Position numbers and translations under genes: made by a program. Source: a virus (lineage: Duplodnaviria > Heunggongvirae > Uroviricota > Caudoviricetes). Taken from it: a stretch of 45,889 nucleotides of DNA. Shown one piece after another: positions 18,416 to 20,974 of this stretch. A model generated the notes under the pieces. It saw nothing but the letters and a program-made list of their open reading frames with translations. It searched no databases and was not told the DNA's origin. Each line of letters starts with the position of its first letter. Position 1 is the first letter of the stretch. Where the stretch lies: the IMG/VR virus record IMGVR_UViG_2576861104_000010; one strand, written 5' to 3'.

Positions 18416-19117
18416 TTATTCTGATGCTTGCTCAAAAAATGAGCTGATAAGGGGAAGCCAATCCTCTGACACTTCGCGAGGTCGCGGTTTGCCGTGGAAA
18501 AAGATTATTCGGCAGTCTTTTGGTAATGCCCCATTCCCCCTGGAGTAACGCGCGCTCGCATATTTTGAACCAGGTTCCACAACATCGGCCTTGTAACTTA
18601 CAAACCATCCTGGATACAGATCCTGAAATGCTGGTGTATCATCGCCCATAACCTTTCGTAAGAACCCCTGGTCACCCCAGCACTCAGTAGTGACACAACG
18701 AGAAATCCAACCTTCCGGATCTTGCCAGAATGAACTCCAGATATGCGCTTTAACACTATTTGGTATCCACAGGGCACCGCTGCCACGATATTGTGGATGG
18801 TAAAAATCCCTAAGCATGGTGAAGCTGGTTGGTGGATGCTCTAGGATTGGGCGTATATCACCAGCAATAACCGTGTCCAAATCCAGATAGAACAGATCAT
18901 CGGTTATATCCGGTCGGAACAACTCGATTTTCGCCCACCAGCCACGGCACTTTTGCCACTGGTTGATCAATGGGACAACTTTGACGCCAGGTACATGTAA
19001 ACGCTTCAGGTCTGTCAGGCAAATAATTTCATAGCCTTTTGGCAGTTGATTAACCAGCCACTGCACATCGGAAGCGTTATAGTCACCACCAGAGCGAAAA
19101 ACTAAAGCAATCTTCAT
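18416..19117 (-). CDS. Hypothetical protein, possibly a GT-A-like glycosyltransferase, 233 aa
   Basis: Hydrophobic stretch then DLD (FYLDLDTV), resembling a DxD nucleotide-sugar-binding motif; assignment is weak. Confidence 0.45.
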
Positions 19118-19806
19118 GCTGCACCATCACCTTTCACTTTCATCAATGTCAGGTTTCCGCAAAATACGGCACCAGTGTCGATATACTGCTGATTCCAGAA
19201 TGTCTTCGGGCTTTTCACCGGAGTGTGACCAAAGATAAAACGATCTGCGCCCGAAATTTCGCCACCAATATCATCCATCGAATCACTGATACGCTCGCGC
19301 GCCCAGACAACGTTGAAAAGCGGCACCTCCTTACCGAATTGGTATTCATTATCCGGATAGTCGGCATGGGCTATAACGATAGTTTCTTGCCCGGTGTTCA
19401 ACTCAATGATATAGGGCAGACGCTTTACCAGCTCCACCAGCGCCCAGGCTAATATTTCCTGATCAGTGTCCAGCATGAAGAACCATTGTCCGCCATTCAT
19501 TAGCCAGTTATTCACGTTGCCATCTGGACTTAACGCATCAATCATCAGCCGCTCATGGTTCCCCATCACTGCCCTGAACCAGGGCATCTGCAATAGTTCC
19601 AGACATTCGACATTTTCAGTACCGCGATCGATAAGGTCGCCGACCGATATCAGTAAATCCTGCGCCGGGTCAAAATCCACACGATGGAGTTCGGACATCA
19701 GTCTGGTGTAGCAACCATGCAGATCACCAACAACCCAGACATTCCTGTATTTGGTACCGTCGATACGGTGATAAATTGTGGGTGCCATCATGTATTCTTC
19801 AGCCAT
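19114..19806 (-). CDS. ppp: Ser/Thr protein phosphatase (lambda-phosphatase-like metallophosphoesterase), 230 aa
   Basis: Motifs GDLHG, GDLIDRG, GNHE; P1 carries a homologous ppp gene. Confidence 0.8.
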
Positions 19807-20414
19807 TCTTTAAGAGTCATCTGCGGAATACCTCCCATTTTCCCGCATGAAACAACGTCAATCTGTTCACGCGCAGACTGGAATAACAAAGGCAGGTGAC
19901 TTAGATTTTTTGGCGTGCCGCCGGAGTGAACGCGTAGTTCTTGCGTAGCGTCAACGCCCACCAGAGCTACATGTTTGAATCCGATATGGAAAGCCAGGTT
20001 CAGAGCACCATATGCACTATTGCCGCTGGCAATTTCATTCTCATCTTCGCAAAGGCCGAAATGTGCGGACCAGCGCCACGCCCACCACTCGGGAGAATTC
20101 GTATTTTTTGGCTCCATGCCGCGTTCAGCCACACGACGGAAGCACAGAACGCCATCTCTGACTTCACGTTCTTTAACATCGGGTAGTGCCATGCAATAAC
20201 AAACACCACGGCGACGGCGGCCACGACCAACGCGCCGCATATTGTCTGGGGATGGATCAAGGGTGAAAAAATAAGAAGCGCGGTTAAGCCAGTCGATGGC
20301 CCCATTGACCGCTATAATCGGCACTCCGCGCGGCGCAACAAAGTTTGCGGCGCTTGGGCCACTGCCGACGATAATAACGCGATCACTGCCTCTAAATTTA
20401 TTCTTGGGAAACAT
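19788..20414 (-). CDS. Rossmann-like protein with GSGPS motif (DUF115/MptE/Maf-like), 208 aa
   Basis: N-terminal [13 protein letters not shown]; paralogous to the upstream gene; its start overlaps that gene's 3' end by about 100 bp in another frame. Confidence 0.5.
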
Positions 20415-20974
20415 TGAATTGCACTGCTCCTACTTGCATTCAAAATATGTAAATCTGCGTGTTTTTTGCGGGTATCCAGGAACTGCTGTTGCCATTTTGA
20501 AATAGACACCTGCGTTGGATTCCGTAGTGCTTGAGGGTGCGCGCCATGCCAATGAAGGCCGTTTTGCAGAGAACAGTCATAGCCGACTAATACCACTACT
20601 TCAGCCCCTGATTCAGCAGCCAGACTGATAGCCTGCGCGCCGCTATTTACCCCTTCCGCCGGTCCACAATATCGCCTGTACTCCAACGAAAATGATTTCG
20701 CCGCCGCCAGGTTGGCTGTCACTTTGCGGAATCTCCCTCCCGGTATGGTGGATCCGTATTGCTTCCACCATGACAAATCACCGGCGTATAAGGCATAAAT
20801 GTCATCGAACATCTGCCAGGAATTGTTAACCGCGATGATTGAACAGCCAGTTTTTTCTATAGCAGCACAGTCCTCACGAGTGAGTGACGGACCGCTACCG
20901 ACACAAAAAACAGTCCTAGTCGCCCTGGGTGGTATGTTCATTCTCAGCTGCAAATTCAGCCTCCAGGCGAGCAT
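20312..20974 (-). CDS. Rossmann-like protein with GSGPSL motif (DUF115/MptE/Maf-like), about 209-220 aa
   Basis: FCVGSGPSLTRED motif and overall similarity to the downstream paralogue; true start may be the Met at about 20941. Confidence 0.5.
   Translation of the reverse strand: MLAWRLNLQLRMNIPPRATRTVFCVGSGPSLTREDCAAIEKTGCSIIAVNNSWQMFDDIYALYAGDLSWWKQYGSTIPGGRFRKVTANLAAAKSFSLEYRRYCGPAEGVNSGAQAISLAAESGAEVVVLVGYDCSLQNGLHWHGAHPQALRNPTQVSISKWQQQFLDTRKKHADLHILNASRSSAIQCFPRINLEAVIALLSSAVAQAPQTLLRRAECRL

Follow-up and report, generated by a model that had tools for sequence, protein, structure and literature searches.

Four overlapping genes of phage P1, pmgO, pmgP, ppp and pmgQ, lie on the minus strand of the 45,889-nucleotide stretch of viral DNA analysed here (IMG/VR record IMGVR_UViG_2576861104_000010; henceforth the window), and comparison with related loci indicates that three of them, pmgO, pmgP and pmgQ, are a conserved cassette of phages of Gram-negative bacteria. 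The window proved to be phage P1: NC_005856 matches the whole of bases 18000-21200 at 99.3% identity, and 18 further P1-like genomes match them at 98-99.5%. The P1 annotation was transferred from NC_005856 by the relation window = locus + 13999, and the coordinates and overlaps of the four open reading frames (ORFs; Table 1) are the same in both; ppp overlaps pmgP by 19 nucleotides (nt) and pmgQ by 4 nt. A preliminary description of the window, made from the sequence alone, had pointed to two neighbouring proteins of about 210 amino acids (aa) with an N-terminal hydrophobic strand and a GSGPS motif, and the ORFs are present exactly as described there.

Bacterial genetics has relied on P1 for about 70 years, but these genes keep placeholder names. 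The original annotation of three of the four reads 'putative morphogenetic function', and the automatic RefSeq names are 'alpha-2,3-sialyltransferase' for pmgO, 'norphogenetic protein' for pmgP and 'glycosyltransferase' for pmgQ; the typing error in the second of these has spread via the database names of PmgO and PmgP homologues. The sialyltransferase label is probably wrong for the host of P1 since, to our knowledge, E. coli K-12 makes no CMP-Neu5Ac (cytidine monophosphate N-acetylneuraminic acid), which makes this an unlikely activity in the laboratory host. The public gene calls for PmgO are often 161-174 aa long (clusters P0002-P0004; 99-100% identical at about 75% coverage) and were evidently made from a different, probably internal, start. 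No membrane-spanning segments were found in PmgO, PmgP, Ppp or PmgQ, and PmgO and PmgP are basic proteins (isoelectric points of 9.3-9.5). Knock-down by CRISPR interference found pmgO, pmgP, ppp and pmgQ to be non-essential, matching the single-gene deletions (PMC10695390). This dispensability speaks against their being core morphogenetic genes of P1, a possibility that the preliminary description had allowed for.

The genes are located behind a C1 operator and the promoter PpmgN, so that they are repressed in lysogens and switched on when lytic growth is induced; a consensus promoter scan carried out independently of the annotation recovered the same promoter, at 21163..21135.

Table 1. Features of the pmgO-pmgQ region of phage P1, in window coordinates.
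Feature	Position	Strand	Description
pmgO	20974..20312	-	220 aa, 'TVFCVGSGPSLT'; predicted first DUF115 (Maf/MptE/GT42-like) enzyme
pmgP	20414..19788	-	208 aa; predicted second DUF115 enzyme, distant pmgO paralogue
ppp	19806..19114	-	230 aa; lambda-type Ser/Thr metallophosphatase (Metallophos 59.3 bits)
pmgQ	19117..18416	-	233 aa, 'YLDLDTV'; predicted GT8-like retaining glycosyltransferase, GT-A fold type
pmgO/pmgP overlap	20312..20414	-	103 nt, pmgP in -1 frame
pmgN	20916..21071	-	51-aa ORF; 59-nt overlap with the pmgO start
C1 operator Oppp (Op83)	21115-21131		as annotated in P1 (NC_005856)
Sigma-70 promoter PpmgN	21144-21170	-	as annotated in P1 (NC_005856)

PmgO and PmgP as divergent Maf-like proteins

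PmgO and PmgP are, as judged from their family profiles, true and ancient paralogues. A single-sequence BLASTP comparison of the two is weak (E 0.003); the family profiles align over 161 columns with a probability of 97.8% (E 7.7e-13), and the cross-hits among PHROG families concur. A stack of 51 PmgO and PmgP sequences has six fully invariant columns: the N that follows strand 2, the D that follows strand 3, a W, the S of an N-S-G/A motif, and the G and D of a G-x-D motif. The conserved core of PmgO extends approximately from residue 20 to 206, and the first 19 and last 14 aa of the protein are unconserved and predicted with low confidence.

The structures of PmgO and PmgP were predicted separately; a merged alignment based on P0051, a natural fusion of the two, was unusable, as MAFFT placed the PmgO homologues on the PmgP half. 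Both models conform to the DUF115 alpha/beta fold, and their closest structural match is a Maf flagellin glycosyltransferase, a protein glycosyltransferase (5mu5; 14.1 / 13.3 in the structural comparison). It is followed by the archaeal pyrophosphokinase MptE (8sd5; 11.4 / 12.8), the Campylobacter sialyltransferase Cst-I (2p56; 10.8 / 10.9), SteA of M. tuberculosis (9hmy; 10.8 / 9.7), thiamine pyrophosphokinases (8-10) and mammalian sialyltransferases (7-9). A fold search of BFVD returned many matches, all of them uncharacterised phage DUF115 proteins. The preliminary description had suggested a profile search with PF01973 ('MptE-like'), and in such a search its DUF115 assignment is borne out by the relatives and not by the P1 proteins themselves, which stay below threshold: the PmgO-PmgP fusion P0051 (44.6 bits) and P0257 (44.1 bits) pass the cut-off, and precomputed PF01973 hits exist for many homologues. 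PmgO and PmgP of P1 are thus best described as divergent members of PF01973, linked to it via their family rather than directly.

A G-x-G-P-S loop follows the N-terminal beta-strand and aligns with the 'GNGPSL' motif of the sialyltransferase Cst-II and with Maf residues 261-294; the PmgO family keeps its G28-P29-S30 without exception, the PmgP family its G19-P20 almost without exception. Borderline profile matches to Cst-II and Maf sit on the expected motifs, those to the GT42 sialyltransferases at E 0.04-1. Maf activity requires an Asp or Glu, a Ser and an Asp (D272, S334 and D357 in CbMaf; preprint 10.1101/2020.06.03.131540), the residues required in M. magneticum Maf being, for comparison, E324/D415. 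The invariant residues D66, S111 and D133 of PmgO and D53, S133 and D155 of PmgP follow each other in the same order, with a Ser-to-Asp spacing of 22 in both proteins versus 23 in CbMaf. Judged by the order and spacing of these motifs, each paralogue has apparent counterparts of the residues required in Maf, and both look catalytically competent. Conserved His residues are found downstream of G-x-D (H141/H143/H146 in PmgO, H173 in PmgP), and as regards H188 of Cst-II they are positional candidates only.

PmgQ as a GT8-type partner

The third protein, PmgQ, which the preliminary description had listed as a DxD-like protein, appears from its family profile to be a DxD glycosyltransferase of family GT8, with a GT-A type of fold. 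It matches phrog_1962 'glycosyltransferase' (E 8e-128), and the family profile run against PDB sequences finds Gat1 (6mw5, E 5.6e-7), glycogenin-1 (E 1.6e-3) and GlyE (5gvv, E 2.8e-3), all of which act on proteins or protein-linked glycans; a Pfam scan with the single PmgQ sequence, including the Pfam GT8 model, found nothing. Across 26 family members D79, L80, D81, H208, G209 and P213 are invariant. The D79-L-D81 (DxD) and H208-G-x-P-R-P motifs to which these residues belong are the two GT8 signatures, and align with 'DADT' and 'VHFLGQTKPW' of glycogenin. PmgQ and PmgP co-occur in nearly all loci with enough flanking sequence.

A conserved overlap between pmgO and pmgP

The start of pmgP within the 3′ end of pmgO had raised the question of whether the overlap was real or reflected a mis-called start or a frameshift. 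It is a genuine and conserved gene arrangement. None of the 82 P1-like sequences compared, each an independent assembly (98.4-100% identity), has a gap in pmgO or the overlap, and every one encodes a PmgO of 220 aa; overlaps of 11-133 nt recur in seven distant loci, including a Citrobacter rodentium prophage (94 nt), Pantoea (49), Chimaeribacter (40), Zhongshania (13), Microbulbifer (about 133) and Pseudomonas (11). A sequencing error is thereby ruled out, and so is a mis-called pmgP start: the ATG at 20414 stands 12 nt after an AGGAG and agrees with the N-termini of the homologues. A possible alternative start of pmgO is Met12 (ATG at 20941). The two reading frames divide the overlap between them, such that the conserved last helix of PmgO (residues 187-203) overlies the unconserved leader of PmgP (residues 1-16), and the conserved beta1-GSGPS region of PmgP is overlain by the unconserved tail of PmgO (204-220). 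The arrangement is best read as translational coupling of pmgO and pmgP.

A fusion of PmgO and PmgP by -1 ribosomal slippage was considered and rejected as the principal explanation of the overlap. The 220-codon pmgO frame contains just two in-frame X_XXY_YYZ heptamers, T_TTC_CCA at codon 188 and A_AAT_TTA at codon 192, and both are found immediately after the pmgP start (window 20395-20413, minus strand) at most five codons apart, the chance expectation of one heptamer within the 34-codon overlap being about 13%. The A_AAT_TTA site is missing from distant relatives, T_TTC_CCN is explained by conserved Cys-Phe-Pro codons, and a slip would remove the conserved C-terminal helix of PmgO, which the natural in-frame fusion P0051 retains; slippage at either heptamer is accordingly given a very slim chance at best.

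Distribution and gene order of the cassette

Loci were fetched via homologues and then scanned with local PmgO, PmgP and PmgQ family profiles. The three proteins occur together in about 50 diverse loci, and 28 diverse viral contigs are among the cassette-bearing loci. The phages and prophages in question have hosts in the Proteobacteria, Bacteroidota and Gemmatimonadota, and all named hosts are diderms that bear lipopolysaccharide (LPS). The PmgP family alone amounts to 527 representatives at 50% clustering in an exhaustive profile search, and PmgP proteins from phages of E. coli, Brevundimonas and a Bacteroidota host are 40-46% identical. The order of the genes varies: O-P-Q in the C. rodentium prophage and a Pseudomonas prophage, O-P-methyltransferase-Q in Zhongshania and Brevundimonas, P-methyltransferase-Q-O in Alloalcanivorax and O-Q-P-methyltransferase in a Sinomicrobium (Bacteroidota) genome. 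A Longimicrobiales genome has PmgP, PmgQ and methyltransferases, with no PmgO within the fetched stretch. pmgN was not seen as a partner of the cassette outside P1.

A frequent fourth member is a methyltransferase dependent on S-adenosylmethionine, either of class I or of the FkbM type that is typical of sugar O-methylation. The slot between P and Q is a hot spot for such additions, and may hold a class I or FkbM methyltransferase, an extra GT-A-like protein of 195 aa (with the motif WIDADS), a GT2-like protein or, in the P1 lineage, Ppp (examples are L114 7546-8130, L118 7546-8130, L125 7536-8791 and L003 9757-10335). The close association of the enzymes is also visible in natural fusions, which join O to P (P0051, 376 aa), P to Q (P0222, P0291), Q to P (P0312), Q to P and a methyltransferase (P0271, 616 aa) and a methyltransferase to P (P0306). 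No flagellar, pse, leg or neu genes were found in any locus examined, no pterin, folate or thiamine genes accompany the cassette in the roughly 50 loci, and no sugar-nucleotide synthesis genes occur with it. A PADLOC search gave no match for PmgO, PmgP, Ppp, PmgQ or Dbn at E <= 0.01, and a known anti-phage defence system was rejected on this ground.

The position of the cassette within phage genomes is recurrent. In HK97-type head modules it directly follows the major capsid gene and precedes the head-tail connector genes. The order large terminase-portal-major capsid-[O-P-(methyltransferase)-Q]-connector, with the capsid gene detected, was found in nine of the 28 viral loci; L006 and L100 are likewise capsid-adjacent (confirmed by Pfam), and in three more of the 28, L110, L113 and L129, there is no capsid hit but a portal gene stands at the corresponding distance. 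Connector genes separate O and P in four of the head-module loci. In lambdoid prophages the cassette is found between the lysis genes and the terminase, at the head of the late operon. In two head modules a protein of about 430 aa is encoded between the PmgO and PmgP genes (L123 5706-7001, L124 1616-2896), with an N-terminus that resembles a head-tail-joining domain and a long C-terminal part rich in Ser, Thr and Gly; this protein is a conceivable glycosylation acceptor.

Chromosomal copies outside phages have a different setting. Five Pseudescherichia genomes (L094-L098, e.g. L094 1348-11335) carry non-phage copies of O, P and Q interleaved with adhesin genes, which encode an inverse autotransporter of 1166 aa (IAT_beta plus seven Big_1 domains) and two further Big_1 proteins, and in Serratia plymuthica (L004 10001-12442) PmgO copies adjoin Big_1 proteins. 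This gene neighbourhood suggests that the chromosomal copies may glycosylate adhesins. RCC1-like proteins are also among the neighbours in the chromosomal islands.

Proposed function and alternatives

Taken together, PmgO, PmgP and PmgQ are in all likelihood cooperating glycan-building enzymes. The partnership of two DUF115 proteins with a GT8 enzyme, the methyltransferases of a sugar-modifying type, the extra glycosyltransferases, the fusions and the lack of genes for sugar-nucleotide synthesis argue that a short glycan is assembled step by step, with nucleotide sugars supplied by the host. The three proteins would act jointly, probably as a complex whose subunits are produced by translational coupling: PmgO and PmgP might each add a CMP-activated ulosonic acid, for which the CMP-activated form of 3-deoxy-D-manno-oct-2-ulosonic acid (CMP-Kdo) would be the only donor that every host makes, PmgQ would add an alpha-linked hexose from a uridine diphosphate sugar, and in cassettes with a methyltransferase methylation would follow. 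When expressed in E. coli, Maf enzymes use CMP-Kdo to attach Kdo to Ser/Thr (preprint 10.1101/2020.06.03.131540). The acceptor would most likely be a protein made late in infection, either a head protein or another virion protein.

As a whole, the proposal that the genes form a self-contained cytoplasmic glycosylation cassette, an accessory module in phages of LPS-bearing bacteria, is given a probability of roughly 0.42. Its components differ in strength, and we infer the identities of donor and acceptor with more reserve than the joint action of the enzymes. A protein acceptor, somewhat short of an even chance, is favoured by the position in head modules, by the chromosomal copies among adhesin genes, by nearest relatives of both enzyme types that act on proteins and by conservation across hosts whose LPS cores differ; Kdo as the donor is put forward yet more tentatively. 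The most specific form of the idea, namely that P1 and other phages coat their capsid or virion proteins with a Kdo-containing and sometimes methylated short O-glycan, is doubtful; such a glycan would be the product of a heteromeric pair of minimal Maf-like transferases and a GT8 enzyme, fed by LPS precursors. The preliminary description had left the choice among small-molecule, protein and DNA modification; glycan assembly, with protein as the likeliest target, is a narrower reading, and the phosphatase and the GT-B gene that had been included in the module fall outside it.

The alternative that survives best moves the acceptor from protein to LPS. PmgO and PmgP would then resemble the KdoIII transferase WaaZ and PmgQ the GT8 enzymes WaaJ/WaaO, and the three would remodel the inner or outer core, so that LPS newly made in lytic growth is altered, the P1 receptor (terminal core glucose) is masked or truncated, and fewer progeny are lost on debris, with less superinfection. 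P1 adsorbs to the LPS core, basic isoelectric points such as those of PmgO and PmgP are often found in peripheral membrane enzymes, and the LPS-bearing hosts fit a CMP-Kdo donor and an LPS acceptor equally. Similarity to WaaZ is repeated but weak: TIGR04437 matches the N-terminus of PmgP at E 0.1, a precomputed match of PF27901 WaaZ_KDO_III to the fusion P0051 is marked 'faint', and hhalign of the PmgP family against E. coli WaaZ yields E 1e-3 on the NSAxGA...GxD motif; the similarity is, however, far under the cut-off (11.9 versus 200 bits, over the N-terminal 36 residues only), and the hhalign probability is 22%. The PmgQ profile does match WaaJ of E. coli (E 2e-5, from a local search of small size), but LPS GT8 structures of the LgtC type are missing from its profile matches while glycogenin-like ones are present, and the best structural match of the DUF115 pair is a protein glycosyltransferase and no LPS enzyme. 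PmgP is conserved among phages of E. coli, Brevundimonas and Bacteroidota though the core structures of these hosts differ, a position in the head module or late operon leaves new LPS little time to reach the surface, and repression in lysogens is contrary to what classical seroconversion genes show. An LPS acceptor is considered unlikely, though it is the main rival.

A less probable reading makes PmgO, PmgP or both into ATP-dependent pyrophosphokinases, akin to MptE or thiamine pyrophosphokinase, that activate a small molecule or a sugar hydroxyl for PmgQ and the methyltransferase. The sole Pfam signal is indeed named 'MptE-like', and the P1 operon includes two phosphatases, Ppp and Pap. PF01973, however, includes the Maf glycosyltransferases too, and the best structural match is Maf; the cassette has no pterin, folate or thiamine gene beside it, its constant partners are glycosyltransferases and sugar-type methyltransferases, and Ppp is not part of it outside the P1 lineage, all of which render this function improbable. 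Glycosylation of phage DNA or RNA in evasion of host defences is very improbable: nucleic acid would be a universal acceptor and would explain the conservation across phyla, PmgO and PmgP are basic and phage DNA glycosylation is a known counter-defence, but no hydroxymethylase or base-modifying gene accompanies the cassette, the known DNA glucosyltransferases have other folds, anti-restriction activity is unchanged in P1 deletion mutants, restriction enzymes routinely cut P1 DNA, and PADLOC gave no match.

It is important to point out that several observations weigh against the glycosylation cassette as proposed. A deletion study of P1 found 24 of 29 single-gene mutants to be without a plaquing defect or a change in anti-restriction (PMC9024508), and the single deletions have no plating or anti-restriction phenotype; the main text of that study never names pmgO, pmgP or pmgQ and gives no sign of them as virion components. 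Two cryo-electron microscopy papers on P1 and a virion proteome paper mention no glycan. The P1 proteins themselves score below the PF01973 gathering score of 34.6 bits (PmgO 23.4, PmgP 20.9), and the equivalence with the Maf catalytic residues is one of motif order and spacing. The annotated PpmgN is an early, C1-controlled promoter, a late promoter of the P1 annotation being further upstream, ahead of pmgL. The capsid-adjacent position might have been inherited in one phage lineage rather than being functionally required, and no Big_1 or Ig-like acceptor candidates were found in P1 or in the phage loci searched.

The genes themselves are not new, having been annotated and known to be dispensable, and the searched literature contains no functional study of pmgO, pmgP, pmgQ or phage DUF115 cassettes beyond essentiality tables. 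What appears to be new is the recognition of an O/P/Q(/methyltransferase) cassette via fusions and head-module synteny, the exclusion of Ppp from it and a testable mechanism. Three orphan genes are thereby brought under one testable hypothesis, that of a conserved and often fused cassette that sits within head-gene modules in several bacterial phyla. If the acceptor were a virion protein, this would bear on phage stability, immune recognition, the pharmacokinetics of phage therapy and P1-derived particles for DNA delivery, and, were the virion glycan to contain Kdo, phages of Gram-negative bacteria would have their first system for virion glycosylation, and the natural attachment of Kdo to protein its first example; an LPS acceptor would imply a new receptor-masking mechanism of the lytic cycle. 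With either acceptor, minimal Maf-like enzymes of 200 aa could serve as tools for glyco-engineering.

Ppp, dbn and other neighbouring genes

Ppp is the lambda-type Ser/Thr phosphatase that the preliminary description had taken it to be, with a PF00149 Metallophos score of 59.3 bits against a cut-off of 21.5, a NinI-like PHROG match (phrog_246, E 5e-113) and a score of 272.5 bits with NF008516, under the equivalog cut-off of 326. Its membership in a conserved module does not hold up, and Ppp was rejected as a member of the cassette. Because it occupies the P-Q slot only in P1 and close relatives (loci L135 and L136), where other loci have a methyltransferase or an extra glycosyltransferase, and because phage D6 has ppp in common with P1 but not the cassette, Ppp is viewed as a lineage-specific insertion or passenger. 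The GT-B gene at 26909-27907 (minus strand), also noted earlier, is dbn ('downstream of ban'), which falls just short of the Glycos_transf_1 cut-off (25.0 versus 26.4 bits, residues 229-315) and has a PHROG of its own (2518). It was likewise rejected as a cassette member, as it belongs to a separate operon in P1 and in other loci is never located within 6-8 kb of the O/P/Q triad.

Other neighbours have labels that their profile matches call into question. For the product of pap (16273-16779, minus strand), annotated as 'putative acid phosphatase', the matches are to polynucleotide kinase-phosphatase, in its phosphatase domain (PF25109, 42.6 bits), and to phrog_415 'polynucleotide kinase', and a role in RNA or DNA end repair seems more likely for it than that of an acid phosphatase. 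Upstream of the cassette (pmgM and pmgL, window 21138-21964, minus strand), PmgM has a sub-threshold match to the VRR-NUC nuclease (21.2 versus 23.8 bits) and a match to a Holliday-junction-resolvase PHROG, and PmgL matches a DksA-like zinc-finger PHROG; by these matches neither looks morphogenetic. Window positions 43001-44000 have a G+C content of 0.35 and a strong GC skew of +0.21, the rest of the window ranging from 0.45 to 0.52 in G+C, and may represent inserted foreign DNA or some special region.

Comparison with known systems

The nearest known relatives are the Maf flagellin O-glycosyltransferases for nonulosonic acids of Magnetospirillum (5mu5), Clostridium botulinum and Geobacillus, with which PmgO and PmgP share the G-x-G-P-S loop and, by motif, the order and spacing of the acidic residue, Ser and G-x-D. 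Maf proteins are cytoplasmic and soluble, as PmgO and PmgP appear to be, and can use CMP-Kdo in E. coli. In contrast to Maf (about 600 aa), the phage proteins comprise no more than the catalytic domain, at about 200 aa, lacking the N- and C-terminal flagellin-binding domains, and are 16-18% identical to it; they form a phage-borne paralogous pair with a GT8 partner, without flagellin or nonulosonic-acid synthesis genes nearby. The GT42 sialyltransferases Cst-I and Cst-II of Campylobacter jejuni are the source of the 'alpha-2,3-sialyltransferase' label, through borderline profile matches on GNGPSL and SG...G-I-D, but PmgO and PmgP have no demonstrated counterpart of the catalytic His188 or of the Tyr156/Tyr162 phosphate clamp of Cst-II. 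MptE, the archaeal 6-hydroxymethyl-7,8-dihydropterin pyrophosphokinase (8sd5), has 216 aa and is thus alike in size as well as in Pfam family, whereas the cassette lacks the context of a pterin pathway, has glycosyltransferases and methyltransferases as partners and occurs in bacterial hosts that use classical FolK. PmgQ has the DxD and C-terminal H-x-x-G-x-x-(K/R)-P motifs in common with glycogenin, Gat1 of the Skp1 pathway, streptococcal GlyE and the LPS enzymes WaaJ/WaaO; unlike these GT8 enzymes it is just 233 aa long, is always paired with DUF115 enzymes and has no Pfam GT8 match.

Two further systems resemble the proposed cassette in their logic rather than in their enzymes. Mycobacteriophages glycosylate capsid and tail-tube proteins by phage-encoded glycosyltransferases, whose non-essential gene clusters draw on host sugar nucleotides and are thought to decorate the virion. 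The P1 cassette is likewise phage-encoded and non-essential, but the enzyme families differ, the hosts of the mycobacteriophages are of the Gram-positive type, a DUF115 pair is absent there, and glycosylation of the P1 virion is a prediction from its genes. The heptosyltransferases of autotransporter adhesins, AAH and TibC, O-glycosylate adhesins in the cytoplasm using the LPS precursor ADP-heptose (adenosine diphosphate heptose), and thereby follow the same logic as that proposed here, a soluble cytoplasmic enzyme diverting an LPS precursor onto protein. Their fold and donor are unrelated to those of the cassette, and the link of O, P and Q to Big_1 adhesins is one of genomic proximity only.

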